Positions 5,559 through 21,307 of a stretch of DNA of 64,000 nucleotides are shown here, piece by piece; the stretch's first letter is position 1, and each line of letters begins with the position of its first letter. Location of the stretch: the NCBI GenBank assembly GCA_965197555.1, contig OZ240213.1, positions 2,603,671 to 2,667,670 of the forward strand, given 5' to 3'. This DNA is from Dehalococcoidia bacterium (lineage in GTDB: Bacteria > Chloroflexota > Dehalococcoidia > Lucifugimonadales > UBA3495). A program made the translations under genes and the position numbers. The notes below the pieces were generated by a model, which saw nothing but the letters and a program-made list of their open reading frames with translations, did no database searches and had not been told where the DNA came from.

Positions 5559-6527
5559 ATGGAAGCCGGCTATGACTACTTGCTGCTTCGCGGGTGCCCG
5601 CAGCCAAACTTGTTTCGGTCCCTAGGAGTTTTTGTTCTTCTTTTTGGCGCGGTGCTGCTGGCAACCAGCGGAGCATACTTTGGTTATGCGACGAATGCGA
5701 GAGCCGATCTAAAGGACCTAAATGCAGCGGTCTCAGATCCATATGAAGGTATGGGTCTGTTCGCTCCCTATCACACATCGGAATCTCCGGACCGGGTCCG
5801 GGGTTCCACGGTCCTAGACGAGCCCGGCGCTGGCTGGCTCCCCTTCGACGTATCTGGACAACGTGGCAATACAAGCTCACCGGTTCCGGTGGCCAGGCTC
5901 ATTCCTGGTTTCTCCTCATCTGCCATAGCTAGTCATCACTTGTATCCTGGGGAATCGTTACCGGCCTCATTTTGGAGTAACCCTCAGGCCTTTGAGCCCC
6001 TTGACTACCAACTGCGGGTCCTGCTAGCTGGGTTCACACCCATCGAGTCGGCGGGCACACTGCTTAATGAAGCAACCCCCGCCGCTACCAGGATCGTCGT
6101 GCCGTCCATCGGGATCGATTCCAACGTTGTGGAGCTCGCCATCAAGGACCTGGGAGGCAGCCGGGCCTATGAGACCCCCGCTAATGCCGTTGGGCACATC
6201 CCCGAGACCGCCGACGCCGGAGAGGGCCGCAGCGCATGGTTCTTCGGCCACACTGAGAGCCCTACTCTAGGAGAAGGGTCGGTATTCTTCAATCTAGGTA
6301 AGATCCCGGAACGGCTAAGAGCCGGTGAGGACGTCTACATAATCACCGACAATGGGCACCATCAGTTCTTATACCGTGTTGTCTCCACGGCGGTCGTCCA
6401 CCAGAATGACATGCGCTTGTACGACACCGGGGTGGCTTCAATCCACTTGGTATCCTGTGTGCCTCGGTTGGTCTATGACCACCGCCTAGTCGTCACCGGT
6501 GAGCTCATCGCTCGAAAGACTCTCTAG
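5559..6527 (+). CDS. sortase family transpeptidase
   Basis: 322 aa. N-terminal TM helix (VFVLLFGAVLLATSGAYFGY), conserved His (WFFGHTESP), catalytic Cys in IHLVSCVP (TLxTC-like) and a downstream Arg (LIARK). Confidence 0.8.
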   Translation: MEAGYDYLLLRGCPQPNLFRSLGVFVLLFGAVLLATSGAYFGYATNARADLKDLNAAVSDPYEGMGLFAPYHTSESPDRVRGSTVLDEPGAGWLPFDVSGQRGNTSSPVPVARLIPGFSSSAIASHHLYPGESLPASFWSNPQAFEPLDYQLRVLLAGFTPIESAGTLLNEATPAATRIVVPSIGIDSNVVELAIKDLGGSRAYETPANAVGHIPETADAGEGRSAWFFGHTESPTLGEGSVFFNLGKIPERLRAGEDVYIITDNGHHQFLYRVVSTAVVHQNDMRLYDTGVASIHLVSCVPRLVYDHRLVVTGELIARKTL

Positions 6528-18781: not shown

Positions 18782-18857
18782 GGGGCTGTAGCTCAACCGG
18801 GAGAGCGCTTCAATGGCATTGAAGAGGTAGGGGGTTCGAGTCCCCCCAGCTCCACCA
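18782..18857 (+). tRNA. tRNA-Ala (anticodon GGC), CCA encoded
   Basis: Hand-folded cloverleaf. Acceptor GGGGCTG/CAGCTCC with the G3:U70 alanine identity pair. D arm GCTC-AACCGGGA-GAGC. Anticodon arm CTTCA-ATGGCAT-TGAAG. T arm GGGGG-TTCGAGT-CCCCC. 3-prime ACCA. Confidence 0.95.
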
Positions 18858-18999: not shown

Positions 19000-19825
19000 T
19001 TACTCATCACCAAAATCCTCGTCTAACAATGGCACGCCAGCTAGACGTAGCGCGGTGAAGACTCGATCAAAACGTTCGGGCTCACGAGTCGGATCGCTGG
19101 GATCACCCTTGGGGACCCAGATAACTAGACCGTTGCGTGCTCGTGTTAACAACACACGATACCTGTTACGCGTGTAAACACGTTCGACCTCTTGCCTCAC
19201 TTCCTGCCATCCGGCCCCGCGGAATTTCCGATAATCCCAAGTGGTGTGGTCTTTGGATGGTGTCAGGTCACCACCCCAGCACATCCCTACCCAGTCGAGC
19301 TCAAGCCCTTGACATTCAAATTCGGAAGCCGCGACTTCCAGAGAGAAGCTTGAACGGACGTCTGTGTCCGATTCTAAGAACCATTTCTCGAAGGCGTAAT
19401 TGATGAGGAATGCGCTGGATCGTTCGATGCCATCAGCCCGTAGCCTATGGTCTTTCGAAGTTGCGATCAAGCCAATCCTAATCCTCCGGGTCGAGACAGT
19501 GATGCATTTGCAGCCAGCCCCGCGCATTCTTTATGTCTCGAGTAACAAAACAGGGGAACTCACTCGTGTCCGGGAAAAGTGCCCGTGCGGTGCCAAAACG
19601 GAACGAAAGAAACTCATTTACCCATTCAGCCCATCGCTGAGCTCGGTGATTCCTAACCACAACATCCAGATGTGCTAGGCGGTCTTCTTGATAAAAGACG
19701 TTGTCTGGGACAACACCTTCGAATAGTTTGTGCCCGGCGACGCTATCCCCACCGATGAACACTTCCGGAGATGCGACCACTCGCCAGGGAACTGGTCGGT
19801 TCTCTGAGCTAATATTCAATAAAAT
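19000..19825 (-). pseudogene. DUF2075 (Schlafen-like ATPase) gene remnant, 5-prime truncated and frameshifted
   Basis: The C-terminal frame reads ...ASEFECQGLELDWVGMCWGGDL...NRYRVLLTRARNGLVIWVPKGDPSDPTREPERFD, the typical DUF2075 end. The upstream part (...VFIGGDSVAGHKLF...RNHRAQRWAEWVNEFL...) is in a different frame that joins near 19500. The P-loop N-terminal half is absent and the remnant abuts the IS630 left end. Confidence 0.7.
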
Positions 19826-19876
19826 GGACAATTTGGCTATCCTGCCTGGTGGGAAGTGTTGTTGGCGGGGGTGGCA

Positions 19877-20350
19877 ATGATGGTCCGGGACAAGTACGCA
19901 GTGCGGCTGGCGGCGGAACAACGGGAAGAACTCCAGCGTCTGATTCGGGTTGGGAAACGCCCGGTCCGAGTCACCGCCAGGGCCCGGATTCTCCTCAAGA
20001 GCGACGACGGTTGGACGGCGCCCCAAGTGGCTGAAGCCCTGGATGTGGCCCTGGGCACAGTGTACCGGGTCAAGCAGCGCTTTACCGAGGAAGGGTTGGC
20101 GGGGGTGCTGAAGGACCGTCCCCAAGCTAACCGGCGCCGGAAGCTGGACGACCGGGGCGAGGCCCACCTGATCGCCCTGGCCTGCAGCCCGCCGCCGGCA
20201 GGGCTTGACCACTGGACCCTGCGCCTGCTGGCTGGCAAGGTGGTGGAGTTGAAGTTGGCCTCCTCCATGTCCCACGAAGGGGTGAGAAAGCGGCTCAAAA
20301 AAACGCTCTCAAGCCGTGGCAGAAGAAGGAATGGTGCATCCCCAAGGTGA
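19877..20350 (+). CDS. IS630 transposase OrfA (HTH DNA-binding part)
   Basis: MMVRDKYAVRLAAEQREELQRLIRVGKRPVRVTARARILLKSDDGWTAPQVAEALDV..GTVYRVKQRF is a typical IS630 N-terminal HTH. The ORF-track start is the GTG at 19856. Confidence 0.85.
   Translation: MMVRDKYAVRLAAEQREELQRLIRVGKRPVRVTARARILLKSDDGWTAPQVAEALDVALGTVYRVKQRFTEEGLAGVLKDRPQANRRRKLDDRGEAHLIALACSPPPAGLDHWTLRLLAGKVVELKLASSMSHEGVRKRLKKTLSSRGRRRNGASPR
20297..20303 (+). other. A7 slippery run, probable -1 frameshift / transcriptional slippage site joining OrfA and OrfB
   Basis: CTCAAAAAAACG. The -1 frame from 20296 reads QKNALKPWQKKEWCIPKVSAEFV, the conserved IS630 linker (KPWQKKEWCIP), and continues into OrfB. OrfB is in frame -1 relative to OrfA. 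Confidence 0.7.
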
Positions 20351-21051
20351 GCGCGGAGTTCGTGGCCAACATGGAGGACCTGCTGGACCTCCACGCCGAA
20401 CCCTATGACCCCCGACGGCCGGTGGTCTGCTTTGACGAGACCTCGACCCAGTTGTTGGCCGAGACGCGGCCATCTCTGCCGCCCCGGCCCGGAATTCCGC
20501 TGCGGCAGGACTACGAGTACCGGAGGGAGGGCGTCCGCAACCTGTTCCTGGCCTGTGAGCCGCTGGCGGGCTGGCGTCATGTGGCGGTGACCCAGCGGCG
20601 TACCATGCAAGACTTCGCCCATCAGATGCGCTGGCTGGTGGACGAAGCTTACCCGGAGACCCCGGTGGTGCGTGTGGTCATGGACAACCCCGTATCAAGT
20701 ACGGGGCAGGCTCTGAACACGCATCGTCCGGCGTCCCTGTACGAGACGTTCCCGGCACCAGAGGCCCGGCGGATTGCCAAACGGCTGGAGTTCCACTACA
20801 CCCCCAAGCACGGAAGTTGGTTGAACCCCGTATCAAGTACGGGGCAGGCTATGGCGGAAATCGAGTTCAGCGTGCTATCCCGCTCCTGCTTGAAGCAGCG
20901 ACTCCCCGACGAGGAGGCGCTCCGGCGGGAAGTCCATGCTCTGGTTAAGGAACGCAACGCCGCCCAAGCCACTATCCGCTGGAGGTTCAATACCCAGGAT
21001 GCCCGAACCAAACTTCACTGCCTTTACCCTTTTGATTCCAAGGTTGACTGA
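20347..21051 (+). CDS. IS630 transposase OrfB (DDE catalytic domain) carrying two 8-aa in-frame insertions
   Basis: VVCFDETSTQLL (first D), VVMDN[PVSSTGQA]LNTHRP (second D), HGSWLN[PVSSTGQA]MAEIEFSVLSR (E). The frame is already open from about 20296. Confidence 0.85.
   Translation: MSAEFVANMEDLLDLHAEPYDPRRPVVCFDETSTQLLAETRPSLPPRPGIPLRQDYEYRREGVRNLFLACEPLAGWRHVAVTQRRTMQDFAHQMRWLVDEAYPETPVVRVVMDNPVSSTGQALNTHRPASLYETFPAPEARRIAKRLEFHYTPKHGSWLNPVSSTGQAMAEIEFSVLSRSCLKQRLPDEEALRREVHALVKERNAAQATIRWRFNTQDARTKLHCLYPFDSKVD
20689..20712 (+). repeat. 24-nt hairpin cassette, copy 1 (in frame in transposase)
   Basis: CCCGTATCAAGTACGGGGCAGGCT, directly after AAC. With the preceding C it forms a 7-bp stem CCCCGTA/TACGGGG with loop TCAAG. 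Identical to copy 2. Confidence 0.9.
20827..20850 (+). repeat. 24-nt hairpin cassette, copy 2 (in frame in transposase)
   Basis: CCCGTATCAAGTACGGGGCAGGCT, directly after AAC, 138 nt downstream of copy 1. 24/24 identical. Confidence 0.9.
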
Positions 21052-21085
21052 CTGCTAGGTAGCCACAATTGCTACAATCGTCATT

Positions 21086-21307
21086 ATGGCTGGGGTTGGG
21101 TTGAATGACCATTACCTGGAAACAGGTAGGGAACACGACGACGGTTGGAGAACTCATGTCGTGTGTCACGAGATGGGCTATAGCTGCGGACTCGATTATT
21201 TTGAAGATCCTGAGACAGACGATTCGTGTCTGAATACTCACGACATGCCAGACCCAACGCCGGCAGGGGACCATGACACCAACGACCTTGCGGATAACTA
21301 CGCATAA
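21086..21307 (+). pseudogene. possible metzincin-like metalloprotease remnant
   Basis: 73-aa ORF that starts at the IS630 right end. It contains VVCHEMGYSCGLDYF, which resembles HExxHxxGxxH with both distal His positions read as Tyr. No N-terminal domain and no RBS. Weak evidence. Confidence 0.3.

Follow-up and report, generated by a model that had tools for sequence, protein, structure and literature searches.

Short palindromic repeats, among them repetitive extragenic palindromic (REP) sequences and Rickettsia palindromic elements (RPEs), are abundant, and to our knowledge direct evidence for the movement of single units is scarce. Here we analyze a 24-nucleotide (nt) hairpin, hereafter the cassette, that occurs twice, in frame, in the transposase gene of an IS630-family insertion sequence (IS) from a Dehalococcoidia bacterium. 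Both copies lie in a 64-kb stretch of contig OZ240213.1, and the window denotes that whole stretch of 64,000 nt.

Several described systems provide points of comparison. GTAG REPs and REP doublets forming hairpins (REPINs) are mobilized by REP-associated tyrosine transposases (RAYTs, also called TnpA-REP), which are Y1 transposases, and the handling of single-stranded DNA by an HUH enzyme is the leading model for this process. IS200/IS605 elements transpose as single-stranded DNA without generating a duplication, inserting 3' of a fixed 4- to 5-nt target and with an orientation biased relative to the lagging-strand template. Some IS elements aim at REPs or hairpin loops, as exemplified by IS1397 and ISKpn1 in the loops of palindromic units (PUs) and by IS110-family elements in REPs and dRS3. 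The small dispersed repeats SDR1 to SDR8 of Nostocaceae, described by Elhai et al. in 2008, are said to be mobile repeats of 21 to 27 nt that form hairpins with compensatory changes and are nested; the target of SDR5 is reportedly the HIP1 octamer. SDRs have been reported in Nostocaceae only (PMC5861425). REPIN-RAYT systems are presented as mostly vertically inherited and lineage specific (bioRxiv 10.1101/2022.05.22.493013).

A further group, the CGTC-tagged REPs, was defined by Di Nocera, De Gregorio & Rocco in 2013 as a superfamily that includes Rickettsia RPE-4 and RPE-6 and Neisseria dRS3 (PMC3733652). Units of this class occur in frame within genes, sometimes two per gene and often in genes for repair helicases, and no transposase is associated with the class; REPs have also been noted as IS targets (PMC3733652). 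A phylogenomic study of HUH enzymes likewise names no enzyme for CGTC REPs (PMC6006769).

A hairpin cassette carried twice by one transposase gene

The two copies of the cassette, CCCGTATCAAGTACGGGGCAGGCT, lie on the plus strand as direct repeats 138 nt apart. Copy 1 (20689-20712) sits between N114 (AAC) and a leucine codon (CTG), and copy 2 (20827-20850) sits between an asparagine codon (AAC) and M169 (ATG). Both are exact matches, identical to each other at 24/24 positions and at 27/27 when the preceding AAC is included. Each copy thus follows an AAC codon and adds the residues PVSSTGQA in frame to OrfB, the part of the transposase that carries the catalytic domain. The unit folds into a 7-bp stem (CCCCGTA/TACGGGG) with the loop TCAAG and an unpaired tail, CAGGCT. 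The stem of copy 1 is completed by C20688, such that the outermost C belongs to the target and not to the cassette, and the unit can be written as [C]CCCGTA-TCAAG-TACGGGG-CAGGCT. Folding energies are -12.5 and -12.8 kcal/mol, with z scores against shuffles of only -2.4 and -1.8. The junction of copy 2 coincides with the 5' edge of a weak host hairpin, TGAAC^ATGGCGGAAATCGA-GTTCA.

With both inserts removed, OrfB reads VVMDN-LNTH and GSWLN-MAEIEF, exactly as in cassette-free homologues such as P0014. Five of the six reading frames through the unit are open, and forward insertion at a codon boundary adds PVSSTGQA and nothing else; in reverse orientation at phase 0, the unit reads AGC CTG CCC CGT ACT TGA and ends in a stop. 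A search of the 64-kb window that allowed up to 3 mismatches found no further copy (0 matches were expected from shuffles), and the cassette is the sole repeated hairpin of the window. The original prediction, which was made by a model from the DNA letters, had described the two identical copies, the AAC before each, the in-frame PVSSTGQA, the 7-bp stem with its TCAAG loop, the insert-free protein, and the lack of other copies in the window, and on all of these features the analysis agrees with it.

Empty and filled sites among IS630 relatives

Close relatives of the transposase differ in whether they carry the cassette. A search of 5.8 billion proteins with OrfB returned thousands of homologues, of which the closest 120 clusters (90% identity) were scored. 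Their lengths vary in steps of 8 amino acids: about 64 clusters lack the cassette, 23 carry it at site 1 only (the position of copy 1), 24 carry it at site 2 only (the position of copy 2), 6 carry it at sites 1 and 2, and 2 carry it at site 1 and at a third site, VLD-PVSSTGQA-LY. At the DNA level, we compared the junctions of eight IS copies. Site 1 (GACAAC^CTGAAC) is empty in copies L122-124 and L127, and site 2 (TTGAAC^ATGGC) is empty in L122-126 and L128; the junction at site 3 is CTGGAC^CTGTAC. In the comparison of empty with filled sequences at these three sites, filling is an exact gain of 24 nt without target duplication. The cassettes themselves have drifted between IS copies, with the loop reading TCAAG, TCGAG, or TCCAG, and with one variant in which a change from GTA to GCA breaks the stem.

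A neighbor-joining tree of 121 sequences, built after the cassette residues had been removed, was used for Fitch parsimony. The presence of the cassette is patchy on this tree, with at least 24 changes at site 1 and at least 12 at site 2, and the nearest relatives of the window's transposase are all empty at site 2. These counts lean upward and are indicators, not numbers of events, since part of each must stem from errors in the tree and from exchange between IS copies by recombination. Copies of different IS630 subfamilies also occur in tandem or near each other, as in L123 (3881-5055) and in L049, which has three IS630-like open reading frames (ORFs) and in which one copy is filled at site 2 while its neighbor is empty; this proximity could give the copies an opportunity to recombine. 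The transposase family gathers other in-frame length changes too, as evidenced by an unrelated 22-residue insert, PTRRSRRQRTLIVRRPCLPRS, after ...RRIA in homologue P0018 and by internal tandem duplications of 21 and 32 residues in P0002 and P0012.

The same positions are also occupied in strongly diverged lineages. L019, from a Dehalococcoidia metagenome-assembled genome (MAG), belongs to a different IS630 subfamily, with 150-nt flanks that are about 60% identical to those in the window and a synonymous divergence (dS) of 1.34. Its cassette lies at exactly site 2 and matches the window's at 24/24 positions. Such identity amid synonymous saturation makes neutral co-inheritance impossible and calls for either recurrent insertion or a strong constraint on the cassette; localized gene conversion across the conserved stretch encoding HYTPKHGSWLN may be another source of the identity at site 2. 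A second protein search took an empty member of the L019 subfamily as the query; four clusters in its output have an exact PVSSTGQA at site 1, and two have one at a fourth site, EFVCA-PVSSTGQA-MEDVLEVY. At each of the four IS630 sites, the cassette lies at a codon boundary of the type C^(C/A)TG, always in one orientation. The uniform orientation is expected because the reverse unit has a TGA stop at phase 0, and codon-boundary sites are expected because C^CTG is commonest at phase 0 in G+C-rich coding sequence. The original prediction had called the two insertion spots structurally equivalent; what they share is instead a similar sequence, the C^(C/A)TG codon boundary.

Target preference and selection on the hairpin

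Among the matches listed in reference genomes (see below), the cassette has 116 distinct flank contexts, and these define its target. Position -1 is C in 113/116 contexts, and position 24, the last base of the unit, is T in 112/116. Position +1 is C in 76% of contexts and position +2 is T in 72%, while positions -2 to -4 are weakly biased; only the C at -1 is fixed. The AAC target that had been suggested from the two window copies therefore gives way to a C at -1, followed preferentially by C or A and then T, often at the 5' edge of a hairpin loop. Models with a target-site duplication of CT or AG, as well as an IS110-type model with a CT core, were excluded, as the left flank reads xC and not CT.

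Secondary structure adds to the target. When the cassette was computationally removed from 108 distinct sites, 39% of the restored junctions fell within the loop of a perfect hairpin whose stem had 5 bp or more, compared with 12% of C^CT sites taken as controls from the same DNA. With a minimum stem of 7 bp, the shares were 14.8% and 1.4%. As a rule, the junction marks the boundary between the 5' stem arm and the loop, e.g., GATTCCCGC^CTTCGCGGGAAT, a pattern that IS630 site 2 fits. Many copies are surrounded by host palindromes of the form GTC-ATTCCNG-loop-CNGGAAT-CCAG, which match the CGTC REP definition (PMC3733652). In the loci examined, 105 host REPs are empty and 58 are filled by a module; for example, an empty loop, CGAAAG, has a filled counterpart, CGAAA[AGCCTG...ACGGG]G.

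The hairpin is also under selection. Stem variants were collected by their loop and tail anchors only, so that pairing was not built into the selection, and compensatory double changes were found at 4/7 stem pairs, a result reached by 0/500 shuffles. One fully compensated variant, CCCCGGA-TCAAG-TCCGGGG-CAGGCT, is present in cultured isolates, at 2002-2026 of L129 (Sinorhizobium meliloti pSymB) and at 1502-1526 of L130 (a Palleronia plasmid). The S. meliloti variant lies inside a 77-residue ORF annotated as "transposase," next to a HigA/RelE pair; a Pfam search with this ORF gave no match. In L007 (approximately 6095-6150), a cassette of the window type is inverted in the loop of a GGA/TCC variant, AGCCTGCCCCGGAAC[cassette]TTGATCCGGGG, which is an element-in-element insertion. 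TCAAG-loop hairpins with unrelated stems were considered as a broad superfamily, an idea that we do not rely on given weak enrichment in a biased sample.

A sibling form came to light when metagenomes were scanned for this hairpin followed by a tail whose first base is not C (loci L133-L252). Among the matches listed, 99/129 carry the tail TAAACT. Nearly always, this sibling occupies the loop of a CGTC REP with covarying outer stems (GTC-ATTCCNG-[..]-CCAG-CNGGAAT), and it is often 60 to 110 nt from a CAGGCT-type copy in the partner REP. Such TAAACT/CAGGCT pairs occur at L138 131/188, L150 2972/3063, L172 395/484, L221 4046/4161, and L248 5129/5219, and each pair may represent a composite element of about 150 nt. 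The absence of the sibling from IS630 fits its sequence, since its TAA is a stop at phase 0.

Distribution across genomes and genes

The exact 23-mer was scanned in a reference collection with one genome per species, for which the listing is a lower bound, and in IMG/VR. It occurs in at least 120 reference-genome stretches spread over many phyla and, within IMG/VR, in one viral contig, where it lies between phage ORFs; a search of phage GenBank records gave no match. The hosts among the matches listed include many Dehalococcoidia/Chloroflexota, several Pseudoxanthomonas isolates, Syntrophaceae, Desulfatiglans, Methylococcales, Nitrosomonadales, Nitrospira, Saprospiraceae, Flavobacteriaceae, Neisseria, Binatia, Bipolaricaulota, Brocadiaceae, and Entotheonella.

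Many of the listed copies are intergenic or at gene ends, and most are intergenic or in genes other than those for transposases. In-frame copies, with host domains confirmed by Pfam, interrupt a response-regulator receiver domain (L006, read as RIKYGAG), a UvrD-type helicase (L008), an AMP-binding enzyme (L107, PVSSTGQA), the ketosynthase-acyltransferase (KS-AT) linker of a polyketide synthase (L067, PAPYLIRG), and a DDE_5 transposase (L027, PYQVRGRL). Moreover, three ORFs for IS701/IS4-like transposases, each from a different genome (L075 at approximately 7210, L082 at approximately 7105, and L118 at approximately 5742), carry the cassette, read as PYQVRGRL, at one shared position, two residues after RWQLE; Pfam searches of these ORFs at E<=0.001 gave no match.

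Most of the 121 loci contain a single cassette. Within about 4 kb of the 121 copies, no protein family recurs beyond common paralogues, which indicates that the element is non-autonomous and lacks a helper gene in cis. Two loci have unusual arrangements. In L005 (83-151, at a contig end in a Nitrosomonadales MAG), two cassettes are each followed by the same 22-nt spacer, TCTAGTGTAACGAAGGGAATGAC..., in a tandem array with a 46-nt period. In L051 (approximately 440-477, Pseudoxanthomonas yeongjuensis), a 14-nt partial cassette, CCCGTATCAAGTAC, directly precedes a full copy and looks like the product of slippage or of an abortive insertion.

How the cassette may move

We propose that the cassette is a non-autonomous, REP-type mobile DNA hairpin that is carried as a tolerated passenger and mobilized by an enzyme in trans, a reading to which we assign a probability of roughly 60%. 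The data show insertion as an exact gain of 24 nt without target-site duplication, with entry after a C, usually before (C/A)T, and preferably where the 5' stem arm of a hairpin already in place meets its loop. They also show selection on the hairpin, no gene traveling along, and repeated hits on the same few C^(C/A)TG codon boundaries of IS630 in lineages of saturated divergence. As for the mechanism, target and element would meet as single-stranded or extruded hairpin DNA, and a structure-specific enzyme acting in trans would cut and join them; this enzyme might be HUH/Y1-like, as proposed for GTAG REPs, or of another kind. In the transposase, the cassette would be a tolerated passenger and not a regulatory device, and carriage on IS elements and phages would help explain the near-identity in distant phyla. 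Coding DNA can tolerate the unit because it is short, open in most frames, and adds eight residues when inserted forward. Only the forward CAGGCT form is found in the transposase because, at phase 0, the reverse form introduces TGA and the TAAACT sibling TAA.

The original prediction offered, among other explanations, a tiny mobile palindrome tolerated in coding DNA, and the evidence bears this out: IS630 sites are found empty and filled, the contexts and phyla are many, and the stem covaries. Homologues without the two 8-residue segments exist and the motif is abundant elsewhere, which is the opposite of what had been named beforehand as counting against such an element.

The main rival to this proposal is spread without a dedicated enzyme, by replication template switching or gene conversion, which we consider unlikely. 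A nascent strand stalled at a hairpin would anneal to another cassette through microhomology, be extended there by 24 nt plus CT, and switch back. This scheme gives a natural role to the C at -1, which is the first stem base, and to the CT at +1/+2, which repeats the last two bases of the cassette, and the preference decays with distance. It also fits the clustering of insertions at hairpin edges and the absence of a nearby transposase at the 121 copies, and the partial duplication in L051 and the tandem array in L005 suggest that slippage-type events occur. However, a microhomology of 1 to 2 nt is very little for a switch between loci, and site 2 (C^ATG) has none on the right-hand side. Near-invariance across phyla and stem covariation are left unexplained by this scheme, and the repeated use of identical positions in diverged IS630 lineages requires more specificity. 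On balance, we favor enzymatic insertion in trans, specific for single-stranded or hairpin DNA, over template switching.

Alternatively, the cassette might be a functional attenuator that lowers the activity or expression of the transposase, acting through insertion beside catalytic residues or through an RNA or DNA hairpin, such that tamed IS copies persist longer; in our estimation, this is quite improbable. The putative catalytic residues of OrfB are D30, D113, and E171, of which D113 and E171 are assigned by the DNxxxH and LNxxE motifs of IS630/Tc1-mariner. Copy 1 then lies within DN-LNTH, one residue after D113, and copy 2 lies within WLN-MAEIEF, two residues before E171. An AlphaFold2 model of OrfB (mean predicted local distance difference test score, 46.5), used for the order of secondary structure only, places cassette 1 after a strand ending in D113-N114 and cassette 2 before a helix starting with M169-A-E171. 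The three IS701/IS4-like transposases would be parallel cases, since the E of their RWQLE is presumably the catalytic Glu of the YREK motif, and the S. meliloti variant also lies in an ORF annotated as "transposase." Cassette-bearing IS630 lineages are, moreover, numerous, and their ORFs are intact. This proximity, within two residues of putative catalytic residues at two IS630 sites and at the IS701/IS4-like site, is intriguing but post hoc: conserved catalytic motifs are also where a target sequence is likeliest to persist from one lineage to another. The site in L027 and IS630 sites 3 and 4 are away from catalytic residues, the prevalence of copies in intergenic DNA and in other genes is not accounted for, and the hairpin is modest (-12.5 kcal/mol; z of about -2).

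Sequence evolution bears on the tolerated passenger that we propose. The ratio of nonsynonymous to synonymous divergence (dN/dS) is 0.08 to 0.3 for all pairs of IS copies, a range that says little alone because most of the divergence may predate the insertions. In L127 and L132, however, site 2 holds one and the same derived variant, the stem-broken GCA form, which indicates that this cassette is older than their split, and the two copies differ by a dS of 0.30 with a dN/dS of 0.13. This argues that the transposase gene bearing the site 2 cassette remains under purifying selection. Two further ideas in the original prediction, a hairpin that throttles the transposase and a sequence removed at the RNA level, have no direct support and are not needed, given the open frame and purifying selection on cassette-bearing genes.

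It is barely credible that the 8-residue segments are ancestral and repeatedly lost, or that they are assembly or sequencing artifacts: although the tree alone allows loss or gain, most close clusters lack the segments, Pfam DDE_3 matches OrfB end to end, identical 24-mers are present in unrelated genes and between genes, with isolates, long-read chromosomes, plasmids, and a viral contig among the sources, and 24/24 identity between IS lineages of saturated dS is impossible under neutral ancestry.

Several points weigh against a hairpin mobilized in trans. Template switching could equally have left the C at -1 and the CT at +1/+2 as traces of microhomology, in which case they would not mark enzyme specificity. 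A hairpin with a target preference of 1 to 3 nt leaves the restriction to four IS630 positions unexplained, and the patchiness of the tree may stem in part from recombination between IS copies and weak resolution. No gene family that could supply a mobilizing enzyme is enriched within 4 kb of the 121 copies, and none is known for CGTC-type REPs (PMC3733652); the dN/dS case for tolerance comes from one pair that shares a derived variant. Finally, the IS copy in the window is missing about 25 nt at its left end, the terminal inverted repeat of that side among them, and for this reason cannot transpose on its own, though both of its ORFs are intact.

A bolder form of the proposal, which we regard as improbable, would make this non-coding 24-nt unit one of the smallest transposable units, conserved nearly base for base across at least 8 bacterial phyla. 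It would home to hairpin loops and to codon boundaries by the catalytic D and E of DDE transposases (IS630 and IS701/IS4-like), act as a hyperparasite or attenuator of IS elements, be carried by IS elements and phages, and be mobilized by a conserved enzyme not yet linked to REP-like DNA.

The host IS630 element and its surroundings

The IS630-family element that hosts both cassettes spans 19807-21058 on the plus strand, as delimited by homology to eight other copies. OrfA (19856-20350, plus strand) is the helix-turn-helix (HTH) DNA-binding part of the transposase, with matches to Pfam HTH_32, HTH_29, HTH_23, and HTH_28. OrfB (20347-21051, plus strand) carries the DDE catalytic domain and is covered end to end by Pfam DDE_3 (E=6e-16); its 234 residues include the two 8-residue segments, whereas cassette-free homologues have 218. 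An A7 run (20297-20303, plus strand) in the OrfA/OrfB overlap is a likely site of programmed -1 frameshifting or slippage that would join the two ORFs, as suggested by the sequence and by a fused homologue, P0030, which reads ...KRLKKNALKPWQKKEWCIPQVSAEF across the run. The right terminal inverted repeat, CTAGCAGTCAGTCAAC (21043-21058, minus strand), was identified by comparison with other IS copies, which have CTAGTA[CG]TCAGTCAAC at both ends. The element thus has the DDE_3 and HTH domains of IS630 and two ORFs at an A7 run, with fused homologues in existence; of the terminal repeats at both ends with a TA duplication, only the right repeat is present, as the left end is deleted.

No second copy of this IS was found in the 64-kb window, a search of PDB sequences with the cassette-free OrfB gave no match, and an exact-protein look-up of the window's OrfB returned no record. 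The left boundary at 19807 adjoins the remnant of a helicase-like gene, which occupies two frames on the minus strand at 19000-19806 (...RYRVLLTRARNGLVIWVP...), and a tRNA-Ala (GGC) gene lies about 1 kb upstream of the boundary, at 18782-18857. This arrangement looks like a rearranged integration hotspot. The cassettes here look like passengers of the IS and not like part of a local repeat population.

Implications

The IS630 family provides a natural before-and-after series for a short palindromic repeat, in which near-identical copies carry 0, 1, or 2 cassettes with exact junctions and the same sites are hit again in a lineage of saturated divergence. A defined target, C^(C/A)T at hairpin-loop edges, together with a defined 24-nt substrate forms a basis for seeking the mobilizing activity. 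Near-identity across phyla contrasts with the vertical, lineage-specific inheritance described for REPIN-RAYT systems and suggests IS elements and phages as vehicles. There are also consequences for annotation: the modules create spurious peptides (PVSSTGQA, RIKYGAG, PYQVRGRL, ACPVLDTG, and PAPYLIRG) and length variants in annotated proteins, and they may confound the clustering of transposases and other genes.

Relation to known repeat systems

A full-text literature search with the DNA sequence, its five peptides, and the peptides of neighboring modules found no paper, and an Rfam E-value scan of 19600-21300 gave chance-level matches only. Miniature inverted-repeat transposable elements, which combine terminal inverted repeats with a target-site duplication made by a DDE transposase, were excluded as a class for the cassette, given that three sites show no target-site duplication and that 24 nt is far below their size. 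Like GTAG REPs and REPINs, the cassette is a non-autonomous hairpin with an unpaired tag, and the HUH single-stranded DNA model fits its insertion without target duplication. Nevertheless, the GT[AG]G tag is absent from both strands of the cassette, there is no REPIN doublet organization, the roughly 4 kb around each of the 121 copies contained no RAYT gene, and the cassette, unlike REPIN-RAYT systems, is shared across phyla. With IS200/IS605 elements, the analogy is purely mechanistic: the cassette likewise inserts without duplication, and of its left flank only the C at -1 is fixed, with a weak bias at positions -2 to -4.

SDR1 to SDR8 resemble the cassette in being very small, in having a compensated hairpin, and in being nested in each other and in other repeats, a likeness drawn from their description; the HIP1 octamer targeted by SDR5 differs from C^(C/A)T at hairpin loops. 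IS1397, ISKpn1, and IS110-family elements share the preference for loops of short genomic palindromes, but they are full-length IS elements with their own transposases, whereas the cassette is 24 nt long and encodes nothing.

CGTC-tagged REPs, including RPE-4, RPE-6, and dRS3, are the nearest described relatives, judging from sequence and organization. Both they and the cassette are short palindromic units with a 5-nt loop, dispersed in many copies (116 listed contexts for the cassette), that occur in frame in genes, sometimes twice and including genes for DNA repair helicases, and neither has a known dedicated transposase. A sphingomonad repeat, L131, reads CGTC-ACCCCGGA-CTTGA-TCCGGGGT-CCA, forms head-to-head dimers, and fits the CGTC REP definition (PMC3733652); it shares its stem core and loop with the GGA variant of the cassette, AGCCTG-CCCCGGA-CTTGA-TCCGGGG. 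Feature by feature, the agreement is partial. CGTC REPs have a tag of CGTC, TGTC, or CCTC, whereas the cassette, AGCCTG-CCCCGTA-CTTGA-TACGGGG, has CCTG or GCCT in this place in >95% of copies. Their stem is 8 to 9 bp and starts with A-T pairs, while that of the cassette is 7 bp and G/C rich. The loop of CGTC REPs is 4 to 5 nt and of few types, and the cassette's CTTGA/TCAAG, which is also the loop of L131 and has the variants TCGAG and TCCAG, agrees with this. No counterpart of the CCA tail is conserved, the tail-side flank of the cassette being target sequence, and the cassette is mostly single, with some copies in composite two-REP elements, where CGTC REPs predominantly form head-to-head dimers. 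The cassette also differs in being near-invariant over many phyla and has itself been inserted in the loops of CGTC REPs. The likeness to RPEs drawn in the original prediction is therefore apt, as the CGTC REP superfamily, to which the cassette is closest among described repeats, counts RPE-4 and RPE-6 among its members (PMC3733652). We conclude that the cassette is a small, unusually widespread relative of REP/RPE palindromic repeats and not a new kind of system, distinguished by a clean series of empty and filled sites, recurrent sites at saturation, hairpin-loop targeting, and near-identity across phyla.

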